Sequence record: MT446387.1
Length of the DNA: 64,000 nt
Direction: 5' to 3' (one strand)
Origin: Escherichia phage TH09
In this document: in pieces, positions 1 to 37,055 of the stretch
Numbering within the stretch: position 1 is the first letter of the stretch
Layout of the letters: each line of letters opens with the position of its first letter
Notes under the pieces: generated by a model
Told to the model about the DNA's origin: nothing
The model's input: the letters and a program-made list of their open reading frames with translations, nothing else
Database searches by the model: none
Position numbers and translations under genes: made by a program

Positions 1-2803
1 TATTATTACTGGTCTTAGTACCATAATCAAAGCTTGAAGTCGTTTTGCTACCGTAATCAAAACTAGAAGTGGTCTTAGTACCCAAATCTGTGCTTGATGC
101 ACTTGCACTATGGCTATGTGACTTAACACCGTCTGCTTCTGTACTTAATACAGCGCGCCCAGATGGTTTACCCTTGATAGTTTGACCACGCATATCAGGC
201 AGAGCGCCAGAAGGATACACCGCAGCTAACTTAGGATACAAGCCAGTATCAAATGTTTGGCCTTCCATTATGGCATAACCTTCAGGAGGTGTATCAGTAG
301 GCCAAGGAATCGGAGCACCAATTGGATAACTCGATACAATATCGGTTTTAAGTGATTCAATTGTACTATTTAAGTTGGCAAAATTACCAGAACCACCAGT
401 AATGTTACCGTCTGTACCTAAATAAACTGAACCCCCAGCAGAAATGCGCTTAGGAGATATAAAATCACCAGAACGTGTAAATTCCCAGCCTAAATCTTTT
501 ATAATTGCGCCTGTTGAACTTCCGTCTCCACCTTCATGATAATGAACTCTGAAGTTACCGCCATTTATTAAAGTACCTAAAGAATAACAGCTATTTCCTT
601 GAACATAACGTTGTTTTAAAATAGGAACGTAAGTACTTGTATCTGTGCGATTAATATTCATATAGAACGGAGCACGAACGTTTTCATTATTTTGTGAAGC
701 AAAAGACCCTGCACCAGCCGGGCGAACGGTGTCAGTACATTCAGCATCAATATAAGCTGCTTGTCCTACCTGCATACGGTAATTAGGAGAAATACGACTA
801 TGACTAGTAACAACAACAAGTTTGGTATCGTTGTCCACAGTAATCATATTACCGCCAGCGCCATCATCGCCTAACGTAACAGAATGGCGCATTTGTACCA
901 TACCATTATTAAGACTAATACTTAGCGGGCGGAGATTACTTATTCCACCACTTTCACCGGCATCTTTGGGAGTCGGGATAATATGTAATGCTGTTTCTGA
1001 GCGACGGAAAATAGCACCGTATTCGGCATTCCAAATTCTTAATGCATCTGCTGTTCCGCCAATTTTAACTTGTCCAGTAATAGAAGAACCACCTTGGACA
1101 AACAAACCATTAGACATGGTAACATTACCGACTAAAGTGCTTAATCCATTAACTTTAAAACTTCCGTCAGTAATAATACTTCCTCTAGCATTAACTTGTC
1201 CATTGAACTGGGTTACAACAGGCCCAGTAGTTTCAGAGCCACTTGGAGCCATACGCTGTGAATAAAAATAATATCCTTGCCCGTCACTAACTTCAAAAAC
1301 TGTTTCACGATTACGATCGCCGGATGCGTTAAATGAATTACCCCATGCTTTAACAGTTACGTAGCTTTTATTCTGACCAGCACGAGTACCGCCTTCCCAC
1401 AAAATTTGCTTAGTGCCATCAATTGTAGTAGTTGGAGCGAATGTTAGCCCAGCAGTAGAATTATTAGCTGCTAAATATATGCCATTATATATTGAAAGCT
1501 GCTTAACAGATGTAATACCGCCATCAGCATAAAACATTACATTATTTGCACCGGTTACTATTTTAAGAATACCCGGGTTAACTTCCATGCCTTCTTGAGT
1601 ATTAATATTAGTTTTGCCTTTACCACGGAAATAGTGGTTCATTTTTCCGCCTGAGTTATAGCCAATATGTGTCTGGCCGTCTCCAGCAGCGTTTTCATCA
1701 GCCTGTGTTTGAACTGATAAAAAGGCAGCGTTCGTTCCAGGCATTGTCCATGTTGTACCTTGGTCTTCTGAGCGTCCAAATATTGCTTTGCGAGTACTAC
1801 GGAAACTATCAGGAGTAATAGATGCCAAAGATAAACCAGAACCAACGAAATCAAATACCCCGGTTTTTCTATAAACTAGACCAGTTCCATTATCACCTAA
1901 AGCAAGAAATATATTTCCTAGTGCCCCAACATTGCCATAATCACTTGACGGAAACCCTTGTGTCACAGTACCAATGGCCAAACTATTGCGGATAATCATT
2001 CTACCGTCGTTACGAATACCGTATAGTTTAAATAATGGTGTATTACCAGTCCACCAAGAAACTTCATCAGCCAGGCCTGTTTGGGCAGTAACAATTTCAT
2101 GATAAATTGTACCACCGGACTTAGCGCGAACTTTACGAAGATAGTTTACACCATTTGTTTCACCGGTTTCAGGATAAACATAGTTAACCAAAGATTGTGA
2201 ATCGTATTGTCCAAATGATTTAGAATCATGATTAATTAAATTAACACTAATAGTTGGTGTACTAATAGAAGTTAAAGCAGTTAACTTACGTGCCTGGAAG
2301 ATACCGCCATCAGTAGAAATGAAATGAAATTCTGAATTTTGAGCTCCCGCAGCGGTTCCTTGACGAACACGCATTGTAATTACGCCTTCATTTTCAGACT
2401 GTGGTTTTGAATATAAAACGCCACGTTCTGATCCATTTGTATTTTCAAACCAAAGATGGGCATTTGCAGTATCATTTATTGCTCTTGTATAAAATGAACC
2501 GGATGTTGATCTGAATACTGTAGCAGAAACAATATTACTTGCCGTAATAGTACCACTTGTAGAAAAATTTCCAAAGTTGTTTATTGGTCCATTGACGCGT
2601 AAAGTTCCATCAATAGTTACATTTCCATCAATTTGACCGCCTTTAGCAATACCTAGATCAATAATATTTCCCGAGTCATCTTTAGTAAAAAGAGTACGGT
2701 CTTTTAAGTTTATAGCCAATTCACCTTCGGCTAATACTGAAGCAGCAGGACGTTGACCTGCAGTTTTGCTTCTTTTAAATTGTATTTGTTTTAAAGTAGC
2801 CAT
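1..2803 (-). CDS. 37: Long tail fibre distal subunit gp37, N-terminal ~934 codons; C-terminal receptor-binding tip lies beyond the window start
   Basis: Open minus-strand frame from ATG at 2803 (rc of cat 2801-2803) with SD gagga just upstream; starts [13 protein letters not shown] as T4 gp37; ends inside the window at ...[24 protein letters not shown]; not in ORF track because it runs off the edge. Confidence 0.9.
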
Positions 2804-2811
2804 AAGTCCTC

Positions 2812-3477
2812 TTAATAATAGCCGAAATCTTGAACAGAATCCTTAATTACGATTTGATCAAATCGCGGAACGTGAGAAGGTTGAGACGCAGGATTCTGTG
2901 AGAAAAAGTTTGGTGCGGTTAAGTTTCCCGTCATAGTGTCACCAGAACGCAACACTCTAGAGTTTGCATTTGCTGTAACAGTATTTATTGCTCCATCAAC
3001 ATAGTCCTTTCTAGTAAGGTCATTCGCTGCTATAGGAGCAGCCGCATTACTTCTTACTTGACCTGCTGCCGACACAACGCCTTTTGTATTAATATCACCA
3101 TTACGTGCATTAATTACAACAGTTCGAGCTGCTGAACCTTGTGATGATTTAAAACCAATACCATTCCACGAAACAATATCGATATTTGCTACAGCAAAAG
3201 TAGCATTATCACCGTTACCTGGATAAACACCGCATGGGTTTGTGTTGTTTACAGCATACGGAACTTGAACTCCACCGTTAAATGTTACCTTTGATGCATA
3301 AGTACCACCATTAGCTTTAGAAACGAAATCGTTATCAGCCGCTTGCGGTTTATTGTATTCTGAATATATTTTAAATGATTTATAGAGTACATCGTCACCG
3401 GCTGGATTCAATGGAAAATTTCCTTGATGCCAAATGACAGAGCCTCCGGTTGTTGAACCTACTTTTAAATCAGCCAT
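2812..3477 (-). CDS. 36: Long tail fibre distal connector gp36 (221 aa)
   Basis: ORF track; length identical to T4 gp36; position between 35 and 37. Confidence 0.9.
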
Positions 3478-3539: not shown

Positions 3540-4655
3540 TTATACTTCTCTAAATTCTTGCCCAAACACTTTACCAGTTTTAGACGATGCTTGCGTAGGA
3601 AGTACCATTATATCCGGAGGTGAAGCAGATTCACAGATATAATTAACACGAATGCCATTGACGCCAAATTCAGCAGGTTTCGAAATACCTCCATTTCTTG
3701 ACACTTCAGAAAAGCTTAAATTTCGCATACCGCCTTGTCCCGCTTGAGCAGTTCTCTGTGCATATATCGTAAATCCGACAGCGTTTTCTGGAACAACCAC
3801 ATAATCTTCTTTTAATTCCCAAGAACCAGCTTGCCCGGTAAACTCAGCTTGTGTCGAGGAAATATATCCATTCGATGCGTTATAAAAACGGATAGATATA
3901 TTTGTAGTTCCAAGCGCAAGTAAATCGGCATCAGCATATAACTGTGCTTTGAGATAAAGAACATCGCCAGGAATTAAATTATAGTCAGATAATTTACTTA
4001 TGGCAGCTGAAGTTGGTAGACGTGCAATTTCGTTATTAGTTCCTCCAACCGCCGACATAAATTGCTCAACGCTTTCGTATGTTCTTTTAGGAAATCCTGT
4101 GGCTCCAACGTCCTCTAAACTGTCAAATACAACATCTAAAATAGTTTGATAATCATCTGTGCTTTTTCTATTACTTAGTTTAACATGTTCTAATGCAATA
4201 GCTCTTTTAGAAGAAGTATAAAAGGCAGCATATGATACGTCAAATCTTGACAATAAAGAATCAGATGGAAAAGCAGACGTTCCTGCGGTTCTTAACCAAG
4301 ATACTACTTCAGGAGGAAAATTAACCTTTCCGCTAGTTAATATAGCAACAAGTCTATTATTCGCCAAAGAATTCATGAAACTAACAAAAGCAGCTGATGT
4401 AGTATCATTTGAAGTAGAAAAAGCATATGACTTACTATCAACTAATGCTCCGGTGGAAGGGTCAAAAACTCTTAGATGAAGACCTGCGCTAAATGTTTGA
4501 CTTCCAACAGGATTATCCTGAAATTTAACGTATGGTCCTGCAGTAGAAAGCGGGCAAGAACCCGCTATACTTATTTTGTATCTTACTGAATTACTTTCCG
4601 ATAAAAATGGCGTTTGGACATATCCTTGTCCAAACTCTGCCATAAATTTTTCCAT
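3540..4655 (-). CDS. 35: Long tail fibre hinge protein gp35 (371 aa)
   Basis: ORF track; ATG verified; size as T4 gp35 (372 aa); synteny. Confidence 0.9.
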   Translation of the reverse strand: MEKFMAEFGQGYVQTPFLSESNSVRYKISIAGSCPLSTAGPYVKFQDNPVGSQTFSAGLHLRVFDPSTGALVDSKSYAFSTSNDTTSAAFVSFMNSLANNRLVAILTSGKVNFPPEVVSWLRTAGTSAFPSDSLLSRFDVSYAAFYTSSKRAIALEHVKLSNRKSTDDYQTILDVVFDSLEDVGATGFPKRTYESVEQFMSAVGGTNNEIARLPTSAAISKLSDYNLIPGDVLYLKAQLYADADLLALGTTNISIRFYNASNGYISSTQAEFTGQAGSWELKEDYVVVPENAVGFTIYAQRTAQAGQGGMRNLSFSEVSRNGGISKPAEFGVNGIRVNYICESASPPDIMVLPTQASSKTGKVFGQEFREV

Positions 4656-10149: not shown

Positions 10150-10799
10150 TTAAACTCCGCATGCCTGCTGGTGGTGAAAGATACATTGATGGTAAATCAG
10201 TTTATAAATTATACTTAATGATAAAACAACATATGAATGGAAAGTATGATGTAATTAAGTATAATTGGTGCATGCGGGTGTCTGATGCCGCTTATCAAAA
10301 GCGAAGGGATAAGTATTTTTTCCAGAAGTTATCAGAAAAATATAAATTAAAGGAACTTGCTTTAATCTTTATAAGTAATTTGGTTGCTAACCAAGATGCT
10401 TGGATTGGTGACATCTCTGACGCTGATGCACTTGTGTTTTATCGTGAATATATCGGACGCTTAAAGCAAATTAAATTTAAGTTTGAAGAAGATATTCGCA
10501 ACATTTATTATTTTAGTAAAAAAGTTGAAGTTTCTGCTTTTAAAGAAATCTTTGAGTATAATCCAAAAGTTCAATCAAGTTATATTTTTAAACTACTTCA
10601 ATCGAATATAATTTCGTTTGAGACGTTTATCTTGCTTGATTCGTTTTTAAATATAATTGATAAACATGATGAACAGACTGATAATTTAGTCTGGAATAAT
10701 TATTCTATAAAGTTAAAGGCTTATAGAAAAATTTTAAATATTGATTCACAGAAAGCTAAAAGTGTTTTTATTGAAACTGTGAAATCTTGCAAGTATTAA
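10146..10799 (+). CDS. 59: Helicase loader gp59 (217 aa)
   Basis: ORF track; length as T4 gp59; ATGA overlap with gene 33. Confidence 0.85.
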   Translation: MIKLRMPAGGERYIDGKSVYKLYLMIKQHMNGKYDVIKYNWCMRVSDAAYQKRRDKYFFQKLSEKYKLKELALIFISNLVANQDAWIGDISDADALVFYREYIGRLKQIKFKFEEDIRNIYYFSKKVEVSAFKEIFEYNPKVQSSYIFKLLQSNIISFETFILLDSFLNIIDKHDEQTDNLVWNNYSIKLKAYRKILNIDSQKAKSVFIETVKSCKY

Positions 10800-10800
10800 T

Positions 10801-10824
10801 TGCTTATTATAAATAAATTATAAT
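10801..10824 (+). promoter_or_regulatory. MotA-dependent middle promoter for gene 32, with an overlapping late promoter TATAAATA at 10808-10815
   Basis: MotA box TGCTTA, 12-nt spacer, TATAAT at 10819-10824; TATAAATA embedded in the spacer. Confidence 0.6.
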
Positions 10825-10832
10825 TATCTCAC

Positions 10833-10898
10833 TGACCAGCTATGAGGTCATACATCGTCATAGCACCAACTGTTAATTAAATTAAAAAGGAAATAAAA
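10833..10898 (+). promoter_or_regulatory. Gene 32 autoregulatory translational operator: 5' pseudoknot plus AU-rich gp32 loading site
   Basis: UGACC(10833-37)/GGUCA(10846-50) and GCUAUGA(10839-45)/UCAUAGC(10858-64) interleave as an H-type pseudoknot, then unstructured A/U-rich leader to the ATG. Confidence 0.8.
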
Positions 10899-11807
10899 AT
10901 GTTTAAACGTAAATCTACTGCTGAACTCGCTGCACAAATGGCTAAATTGGCTGGAAATAAAGGTGGTTTTTCTTCTGAAGATAAAGGCGAGTGGAAACTG
11001 AAACTCGATAATGCGGGTAACGGTCAAGCAGTAATTCGTTTTCTTCCGTCTAAAAATGATGAACAAGCACCATTCGCAATTCTTGTAAATCACGGTTTCA
11101 AGAAAAATGGTAAATGGTATATTGAAAACTGTTCATCTACCCACGGTGATTACGATTCTTGCCCAGTATGTCAATACATTAGTAAAAATGATCTGTACAA
11201 CACTGACAATAAAGAGTACAGTCTTGTTAAACGTAAAACTTCTTACTGGGCTAACATTCTTGTTGTAAAAGACCCAGCTGCTCCAGAAAACGAAGGTAAA
11301 GTATTTAAATATCGTTTCGGTAAGAAAATCTGGGATAAAATCAACGCGATGATTGCGGTTGATGTTGAAATGGGTGAAACTCCAGTTGATGTAACTTGTC
11401 CGTGGGAAGGTGCTAACTTTGTACTGAAAGTTAAACAGGTTTCTGGATTTAGTAACTACGATGAATCTAAATTCCTGAATCAATCTGCGATTCCAAACAT
11501 TGACGATGAATCTTTCCAGAAAGAACTGTTCGAACAAATGGTTGACCTTTCTGAAATGACTTCTAAAGATAAATTCAAATCATTTGAAGAACTGAGCACT
11601 AAATTCGGTCAAGTTATGGGAACTGCTGTGATGGGCGGTGCCGCTGCAACTGCTGCTAAGAAAGCTGATAAAGTTGCTGATGATTTGGATGCATTCAATG
11701 TTGATGACTTCAATACAAAAACTGAAGATGATTTTATGAGCTCAAGCTCTGGTAGTTCATCTAGTGCTGATGACACGGACCTGGATGACCTTTTGAATGA
11801 CCTTTAA
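10899..11807 (+). CDS. 32: ssDNA-binding protein gp32 (302 aa)
   Basis: Sequence recognised as T4 gp32 ([24 protein letters not shown] ... acidic C-terminus [11 protein letters not shown]...DDLLNDL). Confidence 0.97.
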
Positions 11808-12872: not shown

Positions 12873-12933
12873 GTTTACAACAGGGTAGTAGTGTGATACT
12901 ATTACCCTATCAACTACTGAGGAGAATAAAATG
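12873..12933 (+). promoter_or_regulatory. Early promoter cassette with inverted repeat
   Basis: TTGTTTAC -35; 10-bp inverted repeat 12883-12892/12898-12907 whose right arm carries the -10 TACTAT; leader ends GAGGAGAATAAAATG. Confidence 0.55.
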
Positions 12934-13173
12934 AGATTACAACGCCAAAGCATCAAAGATTCAGAAGTTAGAGGTAAATGGTATTTTAATATCATCGGTA
13001 AAGATTCTGAACTTGTTGAAAAAGCTGAACATCTTTTGCGTGATATGGGATGGGAAGATGAATGTGATAGATGCCCTCTTTATGAGGATGGAGAAAGCGC
13101 AGGATTCTGGATTTACCATTCTGACGTCGAGCAGTTTAAAGCTGATTGGAAAATTGTGAAAAAGTCTATTTGA
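12931..13173 (+). CDS. Hypothetical protein (80 aa)
   Basis: ORF track; ATG with SD gaggag. Confidence 0.6.
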   Translation: MRLQRQSIKDSEVRGKWYFNIIGKDSELVEKAEHLLRDMGWEDECDRCPLYEDGESAGFWIYHSDVEQFKADWKIVKKSI

Positions 13174-13183
13174 GGAAAATATT

Positions 13184-13539
13184 ATGTCTGACATTCATGT
13201 AGCTGGAATTGCTCGAGTAAGTATTCGTTGCCAACTTAAAACTGCGCCTGGGACGGCTTATATTAATTTATCACACGACCTATGTTCTAGTGAAAGACCA
13301 TTAACTGGTGTAATTACGTTTTACGCTGGAGTTGGCGGAAACGAATTTATTGTAGGCGAATTTGTTGGCTGTAAATTAAAAGTTCAGAAAAATGTGTTAG
13401 AACTTTTTAGCGATCTTTATGGTGATAGTGATGAAGTTTTTGATGAAATCGCGCAAGCAGTTAACAGAGGAATGGTAATTTTAGTTAAAATGATTAAAGA
13501 TAGCGGATTTGCTTCTGGCCCCTTTCAGTGGGAGGTAAT

Positions 13540-13543
<4 letters not shown>
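13184..13543 (+). CDS. Hypothetical protein (119 aa)
   Basis: ORF track; ATG with SD gagga. Confidence 0.6.
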
Positions 13544-14366
<823 letters not shown>

Positions 14367-14386
14367 AATAATACGTGGCGGAAAAT

Positions 14387-14734
14387 ATGAATTTTAATTA
14401 TTACCCTATTCTATTAGAAAAAGACGCGAAACAACCAAAATGGCAGGGTCCTCAGTTTATTAAAGGCGTCTATCAATTAATAGTTCCTAAAGACAAAATT
14501 TATAGCAGTTGTTTCACTGAATCCGCTTGCAGTATTTTTGGTAATAGTTCTCCGTATTGGAATTTTGATATAAAGCTTGACAGAAATATCGATATTTGGT
14601 TGAAAGCTATGGATATTGGTAATATCACGTTTGATGAGAATAATTATCATATTATTGGTCGCTTTTCCAAACGCGGTAAAGAATTATATTTCACGCCTGA
14701 AATTGAGAGAAAATTTGATGCTAAACCGTATTGA
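14387..14734 (+). CDS. Hypothetical protein (115 aa) between frd and td
   Basis: ATG at 14387 (track begins at GTG 14375); no recognisable motif. Confidence 0.5.
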   Translation: MNFNYYPILLEKDAKQPKWQGPQFIKGVYQLIVPKDKIYSSCFTESACSIFGNSSPYWNFDIKLDRNIDIWLKAMDIGNITFDENNYHIIGRFSKRGKELYFTPEIERKFDAKPY

Positions 14735-14779
14735 TTATTTAGCTTCATAAAATGTATTATAATTTATATAAGGTACTAA

Positions 14780-15640
14780 ATGAAACAATACCAAGATTTA
14801 ATTAAAGACATTTTTGAAAATGGTTATGAAACCGATGACCGAACAGGCACAGGAACAATTGCTTTGTTCGGTACTAAATTGCGTTGGGATTTAACCAAAG
14901 GTTTTCCTGCAGTAACAACTAAAAAGCTCGCCTGGAATGCATGCATTGCTGAGTTAATATGGTTTTTGTCAGGAAGCACAAATGTCAATGATTTACGATT
15001 AATTCAGCATGATTCATTAATCCAAGGCAAAACAGTTTGGGATGAAAATTACGAAAATCAGGCAAAAGATTTAGGATACCATAGCGGTGAACTTGGTCCA
15101 ATTTATGGAAAACAATGGCGTGATTTTGGCGGTGTAGACCAAATTATAGAAGTTGTTGATCGTATTAAAAAACTGCCAAATGATAGGCGTCAAATTGTTT
15201 CTGCGTGGAATCCAGCTGAACTTAAATATATGGCATTACCGCCTTGTCATATGTTCTATCAGTTTAATGTGCGTAATGGCTATTTAGATTTGCAGTGGTA
15301 TCAACGTTCGGTAGATGTTTTCCTCGGTCTTCCATTTAATATTGCATCATATGCTACGTTAGTTCATATTGTAGCTAAAATGTGTAATCTTATTCCTGGA
15401 GATTTGATATTTTCTGGTGGTAATACTCATATCTATATGAATCACGTAGAACAATGTAAAGAAATTTTACGTCGTGAACCTATGGATTTATGCGAATTAC
15501 AGTTAAAATTTCCAGATGAATTTGATGAATGGGACACAGAATCGCAGGTATTTTGGTTGAGTCAATTTGCAAAGCCTCATAATTTTGTTCTTAACAACTA
15601 TGTATCTCATCTGCCAATTAAAGGAAAAATGGCGGTGTAA
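14780..15640 (+). CDS. td: Thymidylate synthase (286 aa), uninterrupted
   Basis: Full-length contiguous ORF with TS active-site region (PPCH); no intron. Confidence 0.93.
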
Positions 15641-15660
15641 TTTTATTATTGCGAGGATGT

Positions 15661-15924
15661 ATGATTTTACGATTTAAAGATACTTCTGGCGTTGTTCTTT
15701 TTACACTTCCTAACCCAAGCGAGTTAGAAGTTCCAGGACCAGAACAGCCTATTACCATTTATGGTAAAAAATACTACACTCATAAAATGACTCGTGAGTA
15801 TTTTGATAATAAAATTTCCACAGTTAAAACTTCTTCTGACTGTTACTATGATATTACTGTATTAACGGAAAAACAGTATGACGAATTATTCCAGCGTGGG
15901 CCGTCTATGCCGGGTAGTGAATAA
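15661..15924 (+). CDS. Hypothetical protein (87 aa)
   Basis: ATG 15661 with SD gagg (track start 15649 is TTG). Confidence 0.5.
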
Positions 15925-16204: not shown

Positions 16205-18459
16205 TTAATGTTATCAAAAGTAGTGGTGTTTCTCAGAGCTTTGACCCGCAAAAAATTATTAAAGTTTTATCTTGGGCAGCTGAAGGAACATCAGTAGATC
16301 CTTATGAATTATATGAAAATATTAAATCATATCTCCGTGATGGAATGACCACTGATGACATTCAGACTATTGTCATTAAGGCTGCTGCGAATTCTATTTC
16401 GGTTGAAGAGCCTGATTATCAATACGTAGCTGCACGCTGTTTAATGTTCGCTCTTCGTAAGCATGTTTATGGTCAGTATGAACCATGCTCATTTATTGAC
16501 CATATTTCTTACTGTGTAAATGAAGGTAAATACGACCCTGAATTGTTGTCAAAATATTCTGCCGAAGAAATTACATTTTTAGAATCAAAAATTAAGCATG
16601 AGCGGGATATGGAATTTACTTATTCCGGGGCGATGCAATTAAAAGAAAAATATCTAGTTAAAGATAAAACCACTGGTCAAATTTATGAAACTCCACAGTT
16701 TGCATTTATGACTATTGGAATGGCATTGCATCAAGATGAACCTGTTGATAGATTAAAACATGTTATTCGTTTTTATGAAGCAGTATCTACTCGACAGATT
16801 TCATTGCCAACTCCTATTATGGCTGGTTGTCGTACTCCGACTCGACAGTTTAGTTCATGCGTTGTTATTGAGGCAGGTGATTCATTAAAGTCTATCAATA
16901 AGGCTTCCGCTTCAATTGTTGAATATATCTCTAAACGCGCTGGAATTGGTATTAACGTTGGTATGATTCGTGCCGAAGGTTCTAAGATTGGCATGGGTGA
17001 AGTACGCCATACTGGTGTTATTCCTTTTTGGAAACATTTTCAGACTGCAGTTAAATCATGTTCACAGGGTGGAATTCGTGGCGGCGCTGCTACTGCTTAT
17101 TATCCTATTTGGCATTTGGAAGTTGAAAATCTTCTCGTTTTGAAAAATAACAAAGGCGTAGAAGAAAACCGCATTCGTCATATGGATTATGGTGTTCAGC
17201 TGAATGATTTGATGATGGAACGATTCGGAAAGAACGATTACATTACTTTGTTCAGTCCGCATGAAATGGGTGGCGAGCTTTATTATTCTTATTTTAAAGA
17301 CCAAGACCGTTTCCGTGAATTATACGAAGCAGCAGAAAAAGACCCTAATATTCGTAAAAAGCGTATTAAAGCCCGTGAACTATTTGAATTGCTCATGACT
17401 GAACGCTCAGGAACAGCAAGGATTTATGTACAGTTCATTGATAATACGAATAACTATACTCCGTTTATTCGTGAAAAGGCACCTATTCGTCAGAGTAACT
17501 TGTGCTGTGAAATTGCTATTCCAACAAATGATGTGAATAGTCCTGATGCTGAAATTGGATTGTGCACGTTATCTGCATTTGTGTTAGATAACTTCGATTG
17601 GCAAGACCAAGATAAAATTAATGAATTAGCAGAAGTCCAAGTTCGTGCTCTTGATAATCTTTTGGATTACCAAGGATATCCAGTTCCTGAAGCAGAAAAA
17701 GCTAAAAAGCGTCGAAACCTCGGTGTAGGTGTTACTAACTATGCAGCTTGGCTGGCAAGTAACTTTGCTTCTTATGAAGATGCTAACGATTTAACACATG
17801 AACTATTTGAGAGATTACAGTATGGACTCATTAAAGCATCCATTAAGCTCGCCAAAGAAAAAGGACCTTGCGAATATTATTCAGACACTCGTTGGTCTCG
17901 AGGCGAATTACCTATCGACTGGTACAATAAAAAGATTGACCAAATCGCAGCTCCAAAATACGTTTGTGACTGGTCGTCGCTGCGGGAAGACCTTAAGCTC
18001 TTTGGCATCCGTAATAGCACATTATCAGCACTTATGCCATGTGAGTCATCTTCCCAAGTTTCTAACAGTACAAACGGTATCGAGCCTCCACGTGGACCAG
18101 TCTCTGTTAAAGAATCAAAAGAGGGCTCCTTTAATCAAGTCGTGCCCAATATTGAGCATAACATAGACCTCTATGATTATACATGGAAATTAGCTAAGAA
18201 AGGTAATAAACCTTATCTTACGCAGGTAGCTATTATGCTGAAATGGGTTTGTCAATCAGCTTCGGCGAATACATATTATGACCCACAGATTTTTCCAAAA
18301 GGAAAGGTTCCAATGTCAATAATGATTGATGACCTTTTGTATTTTTGGTATTTTGGCGGAAAAAATTTCTATTATCATAATACCCGTGATGGTTCTGGTA
18401 CTGATGATTATGAAATAGAAACTCCAAAAGCTGAAGATTGTTCATCCTGTAAATTATGA
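16195..18459 (+). CDS. nrdA: Aerobic ribonucleotide reductase large subunit (754 aa)
   Basis: Length identical to T4 NrdA; synteny. Confidence 0.93.
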   Translation: MQLINVIKSSGVSQSFDPQKIIKVLSWAAEGTSVDPYELYENIKSYLRDGMTTDDIQTIVIKAAANSISVEEPDYQYVAARCLMFALRKHVYGQYEPCSFIDHISYCVNEGKYDPELLSKYSAEEITFLESKIKHERDMEFTYSGAMQLKEKYLVKDKTTGQIYETPQFAFMTIGMALHQDEPVDRLKHVIRFYEAVSTRQISLPTPIMAGCRTPTRQFSSCVVIEAGDSLKSINKASASIVEYISKRAGIGINVGMIRAEGSKIGMGEVRHTGVIPFWKHFQTAVKSCSQGGIRGGAATAYYPIWHLEVENLLVLKNNKGVEENRIRHMDYGVQLNDLMMERFGKNDYITLFSPHEMGGELYYSYFKDQDRFRELYEAAEKDPNIRKKRIKARELFELLMTERSGTARIYVQFIDNTNNYTPFIREKAPIRQSNLCCEIAIPTNDVNSPDAEIGLCTLSAFVLDNFDWQDQDKINELAEVQVRALDNLLDYQGYPVPEAEKAKKRRNLGVGVTNYAAWLASNFASYEDANDLTHELFERLQYGLIKASIKLAKEKGPCEYYSDTRWSRGELPIDWYNKKIDQIAAPKYVCDWSSLREDLKLFGIRNSTLSALMPCESSSQVSNSTNGIEPPRGPVSVKESKEGSFNQVVPNIEHNIDLYDYTWKLAKKGNKPYLTQVAIMLKWVCQSASANTYYDPQIFPKGKVPMSIMIDDLLYFWYFGGKNFYYHNTRDGSGTDDYEIETPKAEDCSSCKL

Positions 18460-18510
18460 TATAATTTGACTCATGGACGAGTCACTATCTATTAACTAAG
18501 TGGAAAATTT

Positions 18511-19689
18511 ATGAGCACAGTTTTTAATACAAATCCAGTTGATGTTTTAAAAGAACCTATGTTTTTTGGTTCAGGTCTTGGTATTGCGCGTTATGATATT
18601 CAACGTCATAAAGTTTTTGAAGATTTAACCGAAAAGCAGTTGTCATTTTTCTGGCGCCCTGAAGAAGTAAACTTAATGATGGATGCTGCGCAATTTAACA
18701 AGCTTCCTCAATATCAGCAAGATATTTTTACTAACAACCTGAAGTATCAATCACTTCTAGATAGCATTCAGGGTCGTGCGCCGTCTGCTGTACTTATGTC
18801 ATTAATTTCAGACCCAAGCCTTGATACATGGGTTGCTACATGGACTTTTAGTGAAACTATTCACAGTCGTTCATACACTCATATTATGCGAAATCTTTAT
18901 ACTGATCCGTCAAAGGTATTTGATGAGATTGTATTAGATAAAGCTATCATGAAACGTGCTGAATCTATTGGTCGTTATTATGATGATGTTCTGATTAAAA
19001 CTCGTTATTGGGAAAACGCTAAAGCTGATATTGAGTACCAAAAAGAAATTAACGCAGACGAAGATGATATTAAAGATGCCATAGAGCATGAAATGTATTG
19101 GAAACGTGAACTAATGCGCTCTCTTTACCTCTGCCTGCACGTAATCAACGCATTGGAAGCTATTCGTTTTTATGTATCTTTTGCATGTACCTTTAACTTC
19201 CACAAGAATATGGAAATCATGGAAGGTAATGCCAAGATTATGAAGTTCATTGCACGTGATGAGCAGCTTCATCTTAAAGGTACACAATATATTATTCGTC
19301 AACTTCAACTTGGCACTGATGGTGATGAATGGGTTAAAATTGCCAAAGAGTGTGAACAAGAAGCAGTTGATATTTTCATGGAAGTTAACCGCCAAGAAAA
19401 AGATTGGGCAGTTCATTTATTTAAAGATGGCGATGTTCCTGGATTAAATACAAATAGCATGTGGAGCTTTATTGATTACTTAACTGTATCTCGTATGAAA
19501 CAGTGCGGTCTTCCATGCCCAATTACCGATGCTCCGGTTAAACATCCATATCCTTGGATTCGTGAATACCTTAATTCTGATAATGTTCAATCCGCGCCGC
19601 AAGAAGTAGAACTGTCATCTTACCTTGTTGCACAGATTGATAATGATGTTGATGATAAAGTTATGATGAGTTTTAAAAAATATTTTTAA
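18511..19689 (+). CDS. nrdB: Ribonucleotide reductase small subunit (392 aa), uninterrupted
   Basis: Contiguous ORF of about T4 NrdB size; no intron; only 51 bp separates it from nrdA. Confidence 0.9.
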   Translation: MSTVFNTNPVDVLKEPMFFGSGLGIARYDIQRHKVFEDLTEKQLSFFWRPEEVNLMMDAAQFNKLPQYQQDIFTNNLKYQSLLDSIQGRAPSAVLMSLISDPSLDTWVATWTFSETIHSRSYTHIMRNLYTDPSKVFDEIVLDKAIMKRAESIGRYYDDVLIKTRYWENAKADIEYQKEINADEDDIKDAIEHEMYWKRELMRSLYLCLHVINALEAIRFYVSFACTFNFHKNMEIMEGNAKIMKFIARDEQLHLKGTQYIIRQLQLGTDGDEWVKIAKECEQEAVDIFMEVNRQEKDWAVHLFKDGDVPGLNTNSMWSFIDYLTVSRMKQCGLPCPITDAPVKHPYPWIREYLNSDNVQSAPQEVELSSYLVAQIDNDVDDKVMMSFKKYF

Positions 19690-32877: not shown

Positions 32878-32900
32878 GAATAAACACTAGAGAGGCTATG

Positions 32901-34994
32901 ATGGAACTTATTACAGAATTATTTGACGAAGATACTACTCTTCCGATTACAAACTTAAATCCAAAGAAGAAAATACCGCAAATTTTTTCAGTTCACGTTG
33001 ATGATGCAATTGAACAGCCAGGCTTTCGTTTATGCACCTATACATCTGGAGGTGATACTAATCGCGATTTAAAGATGGGCGATAAAATGATGCATATTGT
33101 TCCTTTTACATTAACTGCTAAAGGTTCAATTGCTAAATTAAAAGGTCTTGGTCCAAGCCCAATTAATTATATCAATTCAGTTTTTACTGTTGCAATGCAA
33201 ACTATGCGTCAGTATAAAATTGATGCCTGTATGCTCCGTATTCTTAAGTCTAAAACCGCTGGTCAAGCTCGACAAATTCAAGTTATTGCTGATAGACTTA
33301 TCCGTAGTCGTTCAGGTGGTAGATACGTCCTTCTTAAGGAACTCTGGGATTACGATAAAAAGTATGCATATATTCTTATACATCGCAAAAATGTATCACT
33401 AGAAGACATTCCAGGAGTTCCGGAAATTAGTACCGAGCTCTTTACTAAAGTTGAATCAAAGGTCGGTGATGTTTATATCAATAAAGATACTGGAGCTCAA
33501 GTAACTAAAAATGAGGCAATTGCTGCATCTATTGCGCAAGAAAACGATAAACGTTCTGACCAAGCTGTAATCGTTAAAGTTAAAATTTCCCGTAGAGCAA
33601 TTGCACAAAGTCAATCATTAGAATCTTCTAGATTTGAAAGTGAATTATTCCAAAAGTATGAATCTACCGCAGCTAATTTCAATAAACCTGCTACGGCTCC
33701 TTTAATTCCCGAAGCAGAAGAAATGAAGCTTGGAATTAATTCATTAGCTTCTAAAACTAAAGCAGCAAAAATCATTGCCGAAGGAACTGCAGATGAACTT
33801 CATTATGACTATAAATTCTTTTCAAAAAGTGAGGTTAATGAAGTTTCTGAAAAAATTAAAGATGTAATTCTTAATGCGATTAAAAATGAACCAACTACTT
33901 CAATAAAATGTTTAGAGAAATACGCAGCAGCTGTAAATCAATTCTTTGAAGATTATAAAGATAAATGGCTTGCTAATCATAATAAAAATCGTAAAGGACA
34001 ACCAGATGAAGTCTGGGAAGAAATAACTAAAAATTCCTGGAACGCAGCAAAAACTAAATTCCTCAAACGAATGATTTACAGTTTTTCTGGAATTGGTGCT
34101 GGTCCAATGATTGATATTACTATTGCCCGCGATGGTTCTAAATATACTCCATCACAAAAGCGTGGCATTAGAGAATATTGCGGTTCAGGATATACTGACA
34201 TCAATAATCTTCTTTTAGGTCGTTACAATCCAGAACGATATGATGTAATGAGTGAAAAAGAAATTGAATCTGCTATAAATAACTTAGATTCAGCTTTTGA
34301 AAATGGTGACCGCATACCGGAAGGCATCACAGTTTATCGTGCTCAAAGTATGACTGCTCCTATATACGAAGCACTAGTTAAAAATAAAGTGTTCTATTTC
34401 AGAAATTTTGTATCTACTTCTTTAACTCCTATCATTTTTGGACGTTTTGGAATTACACATGCTGGTATTGGTCTTTTAGAACCAGAAGCTCGTAATGAAT
34501 TGACAGTTGATAAAAATGAAGAAGGAATAACTATTAATCCAAACGAAATAAGAGCGTATAAAGAAAATCCTGAATACGTTAAAGTTCAAATAGGATGGGC
34601 AATTGATGGAGCTCATAAAGTTAATGTTGTATATCCAGGAAGTCTCGGAATAGCAACAGAAGCTGAAGTTATTCTACCGCGCGGATTGATGGTCAAAGTT
34701 AATAAAATAACTGATGCTTCTAATAATGACGGAACCACGTCTAATAATACAAAACTCATTCAAGCTGAAGTTATGACCACGGAAGAGCTCACCGAATCGG
34801 TAATCTATGATGGAGACCATTTAATGGAAACCGGCGAAGTAGTTGCAATGACAGGTGATATTGAAATAGAAGACAGAGTTGACTTTGCATCATTTGTTTC
34901 ATCAAATGTTAAACAAAAAGTAGAATCATCTCTTGGAATTATTGCGTCTTGCATAGATATTACAAACATGCCTTACAAGTTCGTTCAAGGATAA
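32901..34994 (+). CDS. alt: Alt-like mono-ADP-ribosyltransferase, copy 1 (697 aa)
   Basis: N-terminus MELITELFDEDTTLPITNLNPKKKIPQIF; R-S-E type ART motifs VYRAQ, FVSTSL, EAEVIL; conserved C-terminal DGDHLMETGEV; I recognise the family but not which copy is T4 alt. Confidence 0.8.
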   Translation: MELITELFDEDTTLPITNLNPKKKIPQIFSVHVDDAIEQPGFRLCTYTSGGDTNRDLKMGDKMMHIVPFTLTAKGSIAKLKGLGPSPINYINSVFTVAMQTMRQYKIDACMLRILKSKTAGQARQIQVIADRLIRSRSGGRYVLLKELWDYDKKYAYILIHRKNVSLEDIPGVPEISTELFTKVESKVGDVYINKDTGAQVTKNEAIAASIAQENDKRSDQAVIVKVKISRRAIAQSQSLESSRFESELFQKYESTAANFNKPATAPLIPEAEEMKLGINSLASKTKAAKIIAEGTADELHYDYKFFSKSEVNEVSEKIKDVILNAIKNEPTTSIKCLEKYAAAVNQFFEDYKDKWLANHNKNRKGQPDEVWEEITKNSWNAAKTKFLKRMIYSFSGIGAGPMIDITIARDGSKYTPSQKRGIREYCGSGYTDINNLLLGRYNPERYDVMSEKEIESAINNLDSAFENGDRIPEGITVYRAQSMTAPIYEALVKNKVFYFRNFVSTSLTPIIFGRFGITHAGIGLLEPEARNELTVDKNEEGITINPNEIRAYKENPEYVKVQIGWAIDGAHKVNVVYPGSLGIATEAEVILPRGLMVKVNKITDASNNDGTTSNNTKLIQAEVMTTEELTESVIYDGDHLMETGEVVAMTGDIEIEDRVDFASFVSSNVKQKVESSLGIIASCIDITNMPYKFVQG

Positions 34995-34997
34995 ATC

Positions 34998-37055
34998 ATG
35001 GAACTTATTACAGAATTATTTGACGGCGCTTCGGCGCCGGTTGTTAACTTAAATCCTAAGCATAAAATACCGCAAATTTTTGCTATTCAAGCCGGCGAAG
35101 AAAGTGTGCTTCCTGGATTTAGATTTTGTACATACACCTCTGGCGGTGATACAAATAAAAACGTTAAGCCAGGCGATAAAATGATGCATATCGTAATGAT
35201 AGGTGTCAATGAGAAACTATCGCTCGTTAAACTTAAAAACTTGGGTGGAAATCCAATTGGTGTCATTAATGCGGTTTTTGATACTGCTCTTCAAACAATG
35301 AAACAGTATAAAATTGATGCATGCTTATTCCGCGTACTAAAGAGTAAAACAAATGGCGCAGCTCGTCAAATGCAAGTTATTGCTGACCGTTTAGTACGTA
35401 CTAAAGGAGCAGGTCGATATGCTCTTTTAAAGGAAATCTGGGATTACGATAAAAAGTATGCATATATTATGGTTTACCGTAAAAATGCCAATTTAGAAGA
35501 CATTCCAGGTGTACCTCCTATTTCAACTGAGTTATTCACAAAAGTTGAATCAAAGGTTGGTGATGTTTATGTAGACGTTAAAACAGGTAATGCTGTTCCT
35601 AAAGCTGTTGCTGTTGCTGCTTCTATTGCCTTAGAAAATGATAAGCGCACGGATCAAGCTGTTATTCAGAAAACTAAAATTAGTCGTCGATTAGCAGCAC
35701 AAGCTCAATATTCTACTGTTGATGCTTCACTTCAGGGTGATAGCTTCGCTGCTAAGAAATATCAAGAGTTTGAATCTAAAGTTCCGGTATATAAAGCAGA
35801 AGGACCAATGAACTCCGGGGTTATCCAGATTGGTTCAAACTTTAACAAAGGAGCTATCGGTGGTATGAGAAGTGCTTCTCGTTTTAAATCTAATGATTAT
35901 GAACTAGAAAGTTTCCGAAATCATATTGCATTAGCCCATGCGCGTTTACGTGATCCATCTATCAAGTTGCAGAGCGATATAACATATCAAGGTTCTCAAG
36001 AATATTTAAAGAATAAAGAATTCTTTGATTATAAAACTGATAAAATTTTAAGCGATCTTGCTGACATTAATATTTCTAATAGCTTTGATGTTATTAAGAA
36101 AATTATCAATGATTTAGTTAAAGGTTCTAAAGCTACACCAGATGAAAAGACAGCTATTATTCAATTTGTCATGAATGGCATTTATAAATTGATTAATGAA
36201 TCTGCCGCTCAGGCATATGAATACGCGAGCACCGAAGTAACTCCAAAAGGATTAACTCAAGCTGAATCTGATGTAATTGAAGATTATTGTGCAGATTCAT
36301 ATGTTGAAATGAACTCGTTCCTTTTGGGTAAACCAGATTCTACCCGCGAAGAATATATGGAACGAGCTATTAAACATATTGAGACGCTTGATTCTGCATT
36401 CGCTAAAGGTTCAGTTCTTCCTCCAGGAACTACACTTTACCGTGGACAAGAAGTTACATTTAAAACTTTGCGTCATAACATTGAAAACAAAATGTTCTAT
36501 TTCAAGAACTTCGTATCCACATCGCTTAAACCAAATATCTTCGGTGAGCATGGTAAAAACTATATGGCCTTAGATGATTCCGGCGCAGTATTTTCTGGTG
36601 AAGGAGAAGGTTCCGTTGATGCAGAAGATTTGATGCATATGGGTAGTCATTCTACATATGCTAGTGAAGATGCCGAAACTAGCGTGGGTATGGTAATTAA
36701 AGGAGCTGAGCGAATCAAAGTTATCGTTCCAGGTCATTTATCAGGATTTCCATCAGAAGCTGAAGTTATTCTACCACGTGGAATTTTACTGAAGATTAAT
36801 AAAGTAAGTACGTACTTTATGAAAGAAACTGCTTATAACAAGTATCTAATCGAAGGTACAATCGTTCCTCCTTCTGAACAATTAGAGGAATCAGTATATG
36901 ATGGCGACCATTTGATGGAAACTGGTGAAGTTCGTCCAATGACTGGATTTAATCAATTCCTTGTCGAAGAATCAAAAGAAGAGGAAAACGAAGTTTCTCA
37001 AATCTTAGCTTCTTTGGTTAACATTAACGGAATGTCTAAAAAGTTCAAAATGTAG
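34998..37055 (+). CDS. Alt-like mono-ADP-ribosyltransferase, copy 2 (685 aa), tandem paralog
   Basis: Same N-terminal 200 aa architecture as copy 1 (MELITELFDG...), diverged middle, same ART motifs LYRGQ, FVSTSL, EAEVIL and DGDHLMETGEV. Confidence 0.8.
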   Translation: MELITELFDGASAPVVNLNPKHKIPQIFAIQAGEESVLPGFRFCTYTSGGDTNKNVKPGDKMMHIVMIGVNEKLSLVKLKNLGGNPIGVINAVFDTALQTMKQYKIDACLFRVLKSKTNGAARQMQVIADRLVRTKGAGRYALLKEIWDYDKKYAYIMVYRKNANLEDIPGVPPISTELFTKVESKVGDVYVDVKTGNAVPKAVAVAASIALENDKRTDQAVIQKTKISRRLAAQAQYSTVDASLQGDSFAAKKYQEFESKVPVYKAEGPMNSGVIQIGSNFNKGAIGGMRSASRFKSNDYELESFRNHIALAHARLRDPSIKLQSDITYQGSQEYLKNKEFFDYKTDKILSDLADINISNSFDVIKKIINDLVKGSKATPDEKTAIIQFVMNGIYKLINESAAQAYEYASTEVTPKGLTQAESDVIEDYCADSYVEMNSFLLGKPDSTREEYMERAIKHIETLDSAFAKGSVLPPGTTLYRGQEVTFKTLRHNIENKMFYFKNFVSTSLKPNIFGEHGKNYMALDDSGAVFSGEGEGSVDAEDLMHMGSHSTYASEDAETSVGMVIKGAERIKVIVPGHLSGFPSEAEVILPRGILLKINKVSTYFMKETAYNKYLIEGTIVPPSEQLEESVYDGDHLMETGEVRPMTGFNQFLVEESKEEENEVSQILASLVNINGMSKKFKM

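Follow-up and report, generated by a model that had tools for sequence, protein, structure and literature searches.

In the textbook arrangement of phage T4, frd, encoding dihydrofolate reductase (DHFR), and td, encoding thymidylate synthase (TS), abut, with stop and start codons overlapping as ATGA. The T4 record (NC_000866) places frd at 145109–145690 and the end of td at 145112, on the minus strand, a 4-nt overlap that agrees with the T4 junction as described in the sequence-only reading of the DNA analyzed here. The frd and td genes of RB69 (Mosigvirus) overlap too, forming an abutting junction. A second layout, frd-td.1-td-nrdA.2-nrdA.1-nrdA, is found in the partial records of phages T2H and T6 (AY262132 and AY262134), in which the td.1 product (protein ABI48932) is labeled a hypothetical protein. 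The paper behind the T2/T6 records (PMC2790892) cites the accession for the nrd region only and does not discuss td.1. Our literature search on td.1, phrog_1928, and the accessory and anti-defence genes of T-even phages found nothing on td.1. The free-standing homing endonuclease genes of T-even phages, such as segG and mobE, are likewise patchy in occurrence and lie between conserved genes.

The DNA analyzed here, hereafter the window, is a 64,000-nt stretch of Escherichia phage TH09 (MT446387.1), in which an ORF separates frd from td. The sequence-only reading had presented this ORF as an extra one. The ORF is td.1, a gene that is already catalogued, and the frd-td.1-td order is the majority state in Tequatrovirus.

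The frd–td locus of the window and the identity of td.1

The interval from the frd stop to the td start of the window, 14367–14779, is 413 bp, which bears out the earlier description of an ORF lying in a gap of about 410 bp. The features of the locus, and those of related loci discussed below, are collected in Table 1.

Table 1. Coordinates of features in the window and of the B-type and C genes in other loci.
Feature	Locus	Coordinates	Strand	Source
frd.1 (DUF5417)	Window	12931–13173		
DUF7247/phrog_3566 protein, 119 aa	Window	13184–13543		
phrog_3183 protein, about 81–85 aa	Window	13528–13785		
frd (dihydrofolate reductase), 193 aa	Window	13785–14366	+	ORF list; DHFR label in near-identical records
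Direct repeat copy 1, TAAATGAAATAATAC, across frd stop codon	Window	14360–14374	+	Repeat search
frd–td.1 spacer, 20 nt, weak Shine-Dalgarno-like GGCGGA	Window	14367–14386	+	Raw sequence
td.1 ORF, 115 aa, ATG start, protein MNFNYYPILLEKDAKQPKWQGPQF...	Window	14387–14734	+	ORF list and raw sequence
td.1–td spacer, 45 nt, td Shine-Dalgarno AAGG and promoter-like TTAGCTTCA ... TATAAT/TAATTT	Window	14735–14779	+	Raw sequence
Direct repeat copy 2, TAAATGAAACAATAC, across td start codon	Window	14777–14791	+	Repeat search
td (thymidylate synthase), 286 aa, uninterrupted	Window	14780–15640	+	ORF list; label in near-identical records
nrdB, uninterrupted	Window	18511–19689		
Alt-like ADP-ribosyltransferase, 698 aa	Window	32898–34994		
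Alt-like ADP-ribosyltransferase, 685 aa	Window	34998–37055		
B-type copy	L004	2317–2676		
B-type copy	L005	2308–2655		
B-type copy	L007	2290–2643		
B-type copy	L008	2309–2659		
B-type copy	L009	2287–2634		
B-type copy	L010	2314–2688		
C gene	L014 (ACG-C40)	508–714		
C gene	L024 (JS98)	4214–4420	–	
C gene	L007 (Potts1)	2651–2854		
C gene	L011	4670–4879		

The window ORF is 99–100% identical to td.1, or RB32ORF229c, of T2, T6, and the RB phages. The td.1 of T2H and T6, for which Shfl2p237 is a further alias, occupies the same slot between frd and td; identity is 99.1% over 115 aa, so that the proteins differ from that of the window by only one to a few substitutions. A translated search of 50,697 phage records found the td.1 protein at 92–100% identity in about 362 records, including T2, T6, RB14, RB27, RB32, RB51, and many Tequatroviruses of Shigella, Yersinia, and Salmonella. 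Homologues of less than 60% identity are present in about 220 further records, mostly of phages of Klebsiella, Enterobacter, Citrobacter, Salmonella, Serratia, and Erwinia.

The td.1 protein matches the phrog_1928 HMM with an E-value of 3.8e-35, residues 4–111 aligning with positions 2–125 of the 126-position profile. No Pfam family matches it at E-values up to 10, there is no NCBIfam match, and no family of PADLOC-DB, which covers defence rather than anti-defence proteins, matches at E-values up to 10. Scans of 45 aligned family members against Pfam, NCBIfam, and PADLOC gave no consistent match. The earlier statement that the ORF has no recognizable motif is thus upheld. Identical td.1 proteins are labeled hypothetical in hundreds of genomes, and the protein has been in GenBank since the T2/T6 nrd-region deposits. 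Conflicting product names are found in MZ501106 (Bas43), OK272484 and OK272476 (JLBYU22 and JLBYU24), PP526941 (ECO78), and MN580668 (pSe_SNUABM_01), as follows: putative homing endonuclease (Bas43), putative dihydrofolate reductase, reductase, and putative glucose-1-phosphate adenylyltransferase. None of the four names is backed by domain or fold searches, and these labels should not be propagated in annotation.

The ATG at 14387 is identified by alignment as the conserved td.1 start, the MNFNYY starts of the divergent Tequatroviruses NHEP36 and F2 both overlapping frd; an alternative GTG start is at 14375. In NHEP36, which lacks the 20-nt spacer, the frd TGA and the ATG of td.1 overlap. A comparable spacer is present in F2, where frd extends across it into the first 11 nt of td.1. 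The window-type td.1 is preceded by a separate 20-nt leader, in which the Shine-Dalgarno sequence is weak, and is not coupled to frd by overlapping codons. At the other end of the gene, alignment shows that about 30 nt of the td.1–td spacer are missing in F2 and NHEP36. These nucleotides hold TTAGCTTCA and the TATAAT/TAATTT sequence, which lies 10–12 nt downstream of it. The promoter-like TTAGCTTCA element, just upstream of td, resembles by eye the MotA box of a T4 middle promoter, and we take it to be a putative element of that kind. A generic sigma-70 promoter scan gave one site, at 14731–14760; generic promoter and terminator scans of the region showed no enrichment over shuffled sequences. 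The one match in an Rfam scan of 13500–15800, to an lncRNA model from Drosophila, fell below threshold and is discounted as noise.

The td.1 ORF is a genuine coding gene under purifying selection. Among six Tequatrovirus alleles, dN/dS is 0.01–0.10 with dS up to 0.97. Homologues with 27–62% identity are found at the equivalent position in other genera, and the divergent proteins keep the motifs D-x-x-Q-x-K-W, (H/K)-G-I-Y, and G-R-F-x-K-x-G-x-x-x-x-F-x-P. The weak Shine-Dalgarno sequence of the window allele and its uncoupled start might suggest a chance or decaying open frame without a product. The dN/dS values, the retention of motifs at such divergence, and a confident fold prediction argue against this, and because of the selection analysis that reading is effectively refuted, with a probability close to nil.

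The frd–td junction had been expected to vary among T-even phages, and comparison of the Tequatrovirus records reveals three alleles: frd-td.1-td in about 362 records, frd-C-td in about 137, and the empty, T4-type junction in 32. About half of these 32 are T4 isolates or partial T4 sequences, and the T4-type junction makes up about 6% of the records. Against such numbers td.1, a named gene with a phrog_1928 profile, is hardly an extra.

The C gene is an intact 68-aa ORF (phrog_9550, MSNKLKVKDVP...YSWMN) of a family distinct from that of td.1, and neither Pfam nor NCBIfam gives a match for it. In both ACG-C40 and JS98 it is joined to its neighbors by ATGA overlaps, one of its start codon with the frd stop and one of its stop codon with the td ATG. 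The C protein is 79% identical between genera whose Frd proteins are about 48% identical, and it is thus far better conserved than its neighbors. We had considered the 206-nt ACG-C40-type allele as a frameshifted remnant of an AP2-like homing endonuclease; the intact ORF and its 79% identity across genera led us to reject that candidate. The gene is under-called as a 42-aa product in ACG-C40 and Potts1 and is unannotated in the RefSeq record of JS98 (Dhakavirus).

Distribution and tandem paralogues of the phrog_1928 family

When 1.84 billion representative proteins were searched exhaustively with the family HMM, 43 representatives matched at E-values up to 0.001. Forty-one of these are small, 37–139 aa, two of them being fragments. 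The two long matches, P0038 and P0042, are proteins with Ig-like repeats, many of which each add a little to the total score, and they were set aside as spurious. The phrog_1928 family is therefore a small one, and within the sampled sequences it is restricted to T4-like phages.

The td.1 homologue lies directly 3′ of frd in seven genera besides Tequatrovirus: Kanagawavirus (ZX14), Mosugukvirus (PM2), Jiaodavirus (KP17), Marfavirus (Potts1), Gelderlandvirus, Moonvirus (CF1), and Winklervirus (Kc304). The stop and start codons usually overlap. A family member also follows frd in all the metagenomic contigs examined (L011–L013 and L019–L022), one of which has the minimal order gp32-DHFR-X-TS-NrdA. 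In all, a family member is located between DHFR and TS in 20 of the 20 loci examined that hold one. The sequence-only reading had taken the operon for a landing site of accessory genes. That proposal fits poorly with a family whose members, usually coupled to frd, keep to one slot in eight or more named genera and in all the metagenomic contigs examined.

In most of these phages the td.1 homologue is followed by a second ORF of about 115–135 aa. This ORF, which we call B-type, is a paralogue of td.1, the A-type (hhalign probability 99.4%, E = 5e-21), and both types match phrog_1928. In Kanagawavirus, Mosugukvirus, Marfavirus, Gelderlandvirus, Moonvirus, and Winklervirus, the B-type gene sits between the td.1 homologue and td. 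The B-type protein shares with td.1 the Q-x-K-W, HG-x-Y, and GRF-x-K-x-G motifs, but it is only 20–26% identical and has, after the conserved Trp, an insert of about 15–20 residues (PTIxxYKRNP...) that td.1 lacks. The B-type gene is missing from the window, and an HMM search found no paralogue of td.1 elsewhere in the window. In the metagenomic loci L019 and L022, the sole copy between DHFR and TS is of the B-type. Where the C gene is third in the array, it is located just before td; A, B, and C occur together in Marfavirus and in L011.

Searching the entire T4 genome in six frames with the profile yielded no family member, the best E-value being 0.65. A T4 homologue at the same position, which the sequence-only reading had named as the observation that would count against it, is likewise absent, since the alignment shows a 417-nt gap there.

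The td.1 homologue of L011, a metagenomic T4-like contig (Logan SRR23814683), at 4001–4348, is 62% identical to td.1 of the window, while identity is only 48% for Frd and 77% for Td. For Kanagawavirus, the closest named genus, the corresponding values against the window are 45% for td.1, 49% for Frd, and 76% for Td. The mismatch in the identities with L011 suggests either lateral exchange of a cassette or uneven rates of change.

Origin of the T4 junction

The T4 junction has the same flanking genes as the window, with Frd proteins 94% identical and td collinear. T4 td carries the I-TevI intron; td of the window has no intron. In the alignment, T4 shows a clean gap of 417 nt, the segment that contains td.1. 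A 15-nt direct repeat, TAAATGAAA[T/C]AATAC, is found at 14360–14374 and 14777–14791, the copies being identical at 14 of 15 positions. Their spacing of 417 nt matches the length of the T4 gap exactly. The T4 junction corresponds to a single copy of the repeat, namely the td-side one. Since the repeat brackets exactly the 417 bp missing in T4, it follows that T4 is most likely a deletion derivative. Its abutting junction is very probably secondary, formed by recombination between short repeats that hold the gene starts (TAAATGAAAYAATAC). In NHEP36, an 8-nt repeat, TAAATGAA, marks both gene starts.

The repeat could also be read the other way, as the target-site duplication left by a recent insertion of td.1 into a T4-like abutting junction, with T4 as the ancestral form. 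A direct repeat flanking precisely the additional 417 nt is what such an insertion would leave, repeat copy 1 resembles a mutated td start (ATGAAATAA vs. ATGAAACAA), and RB69, of a sister genus, also has an abutting junction. Nevertheless, we regard a recent insertion as quite improbable. Many genera that have diverged well beyond Tequatrovirus (Frd identity 40–53%) carry homologues in this slot, and the T4-type junction is rare, T4 itself accounting for about half of its records. Moreover, the divergent Tequatroviruses NHEP36 and F2 resemble the other genera in that td.1 overlaps frd and no long repeat is present, and the C-only allele is likewise a subset of the A-B-C array.

We propose, for the deletion, the following course. 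The ancestral locus would have been an array, frd-A-B-(C)-td, in which stop and start codons mostly overlapped. The array would then have been shortened differently in each lineage by recombination between the similar start regions. The reduced forms in Tequatrovirus would be A only (T2, T6, and the window; the majority), C only (the ACG-C40 type), and none (T4 and a few relatives), with T4 representing the fully collapsed form of the ancestral array.

The window differs from T4 in several other respects. Between frd.1 and frd there are two more ORFs, encoding the DUF7247/phrog_3566 and phrog_3183 proteins (Table 1), at a position where T4 has only a 71-nt gap. With this short gap upstream of frd and td.1 missing downstream, T4 is the collapsed form on either flank of frd when compared with the window phage. 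The td and nrdB genes of the window are uninterrupted, without the I-TevI or I-TevIII introns. The gap between nrdA and nrdB is only 51 nt (18459–18511), with no mobE and no nrdB.1. The gp59-like and gp32-like ORFs, identified by length and order only, are about 100 nt apart (10799–10899), with no segG. The window also has two full-length Alt-like ADP-ribosyltransferase genes in tandem; their products share 42% identity, and each matches PF03496. In T4 a single alt gene is accompanied by alt.-1 and alt.-2, short remnants that the annotation ascribes to an old partial duplication.

Predicted structure and candidate roles of td.1

AlphaFold modeling of td.1 with 11 sequences gave a pLDDT of 74, and with the 45-sequence family alignment a pLDDT of 91.5 and a pTM of 0.84. 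The predicted domain is compact and resembles a beta-barrel, with strands at residues 6–12, 27–34, 62–64, 80–82, 86–96, and 99–104 and a helix at 68–76. Conserved residues D13, Q16, and W19 are in the loop between strands 1 and 2, G27 and Y29 are in strand 2, and G91, R92, F93, K95, and G97 are in the C-terminal hairpin. Family members tend to be mildly basic (median pI, 8.8). The model can be likened to OB-fold domains, namely the RecO N-terminal domain, the OB domains of RPA/Teb1, SSB, the S1 and cold-shock domains, and HIN domains. We infer that the conserved residues would map to the L12 and L45 ligand-binding regions of an OB-fold, a mapping made from the alignment and the secondary-structure string rather than from coordinates. 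A Foldseek search of viral predicted structures returned only uncharacterized proteins of T4-like phages. Sequence-profile searches of the PDB, with 10- and 45-sequence profiles, gave noise, the best matches being TagH and dynein at E-values of 0.017–0.37. Neither a nuclease nor a solved anti-defence protein is among the structural matches of the model.

These results bear on the proposal that td.1 is a free-standing homing endonuclease. The label “putative homing endonuclease” is attached to the protein in three records of BASEL phages (Bas43, Bas-FriedrichZschokke, and Bas-AugustSocin), and td.1 shows presence/absence polymorphism among T-even phages beside td, a known homing target. However, no GIY-YIG, HNH, LAGLIDADG, or PD-(D/E)xK motif is detected in td.1 at E-values up to 10 or in the 45 family members at E-values up to 1. 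At 115 aa, the protein is much smaller than the products of segG, mobE, and the like, its prediction is a single small beta-barrel that resembles no nuclease, and its gene has a position that is constant across genera, with tandem paralogues coupled to frd. Nor is the distribution the sporadic one of a mobile gene: for all the polymorphism within Tequatrovirus, the family keeps to a single slot in eight or more genera, its divergence looks vertical, and its paralogues lie in tandem. We consider a homing endonuclease very improbable.

The gene arrangement points to expression with the surrounding operon. We propose, with good confidence, that td.1 would be co-expressed with the pre-replicative nucleotide-metabolism genes. 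Given the overlap of stop and start codons in most genera, the family is probably co-transcribed with its neighbors and translationally coupled to them there. The absence of td.1 from T4 and RB69 indicates that it is not needed for growth, and the absence of any family member from the T4 genome that the family is dispensable for a T-even phage on laboratory hosts.

The td.1 protein might act as a dispensable auxiliary beside DHFR and TS in deoxynucleotide supply. Residues D13, Q16, W19, Y29, R92, F93, K95, and G97 would make up the surface that binds the ligand, be it nucleic acid, nucleotide, or partner protein, and the role might be, for example, that of an adaptor or regulator of the assembly of dNTP-synthesizing enzymes. 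It is tempting to propose, though only tentatively, that td.1 is a non-enzymatic, OB-like binder of such a ligand that aids or regulates the dNTP supply linked to DHFR and TS.

A closer tie to the pathway can be imagined, in which phrog_1928 proteins would be dedicated partners of DHFR and TS. They would have a new small beta-barrel fold that binds nucleotide, folate, or nucleic acid, and they would tether or regulate thymidylate synthesis within the T4-type dNTP-synthesizing complex or protect the pathway from a host countermeasure. We rate this proposal as doubtful. As for the auxiliary role itself, the adjacency to frd and td is weak evidence of a shared function because gene order in the packed early regions of T4-like phages can persist by inheritance alone. 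Furthermore, td.1 has been lost repeatedly, in T4, RB69, and the C-type phages, with frd and td being kept; it is therefore not an obligate partner of either. The L011 A gene, at 62% identity next to a Frd at 48%, hints at some lateral exchange, as would suit an accessory cassette.

Alternatively, td.1 could be an accessory protein for host takeover or counter-defence, a small early product that neutralizes a host factor or immune system, the frd–td slot merely tolerating cassettes. The gene would then be kept or lost according to the hosts met by each lineage. Several observations fit: the locus is polymorphic, with three alleles within one genus; td.1 is dispensable in T4 and RB69 and its family is phage-confined; the product is a small early-region protein without an enzymatic motif; and the mismatch between td.1 and Frd identities with L011 suggests exchange. 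On the other hand, a fixed position in at least eight named genera and all the sampled metagenomic contigs, with overlapping codons, is unlike the fast turnover of anti-defence islands. Purifying selection acts strongly on td.1, whose product varies little in amino-acid sequence within Tequatrovirus. The model matches no solved anti-defence protein, and we found no paper linking td.1 to defence. We judge a takeover or counter-defence role to be rather unlikely, about as probable as the tentative binder role.

Taken as a whole, the explanation in which td.1 of the window, the sole remaining A-type copy, encodes a candidate accessory binder acting beside DHFR and TS, and in which the T4 junction is a deletion, is one that we consider reasonably likely.

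The apparent anomaly of the window stems from the use of T4 as the reference. The common state is frd-td.1-td, and T4 is a poor reference for the frd–td locus, its overlapping junction being a rare allele that most likely derives from a deletion. The td.1 family is among the few orphan genes that have a fixed position between two enzymes of the same pathway across much of the Tevenvirinae. As the family frequently occurs in duplicate and its fold, predicted with confidence, has no relative of solved structure, td.1 is a modestly attractive target for experiments. If phrog_1928 proteins were indeed dedicated partners of DHFR and TS, the loss of the family from T4 would explain how they came to be overlooked, for it was in T4 that the dNTP-synthesizing complex was defined.
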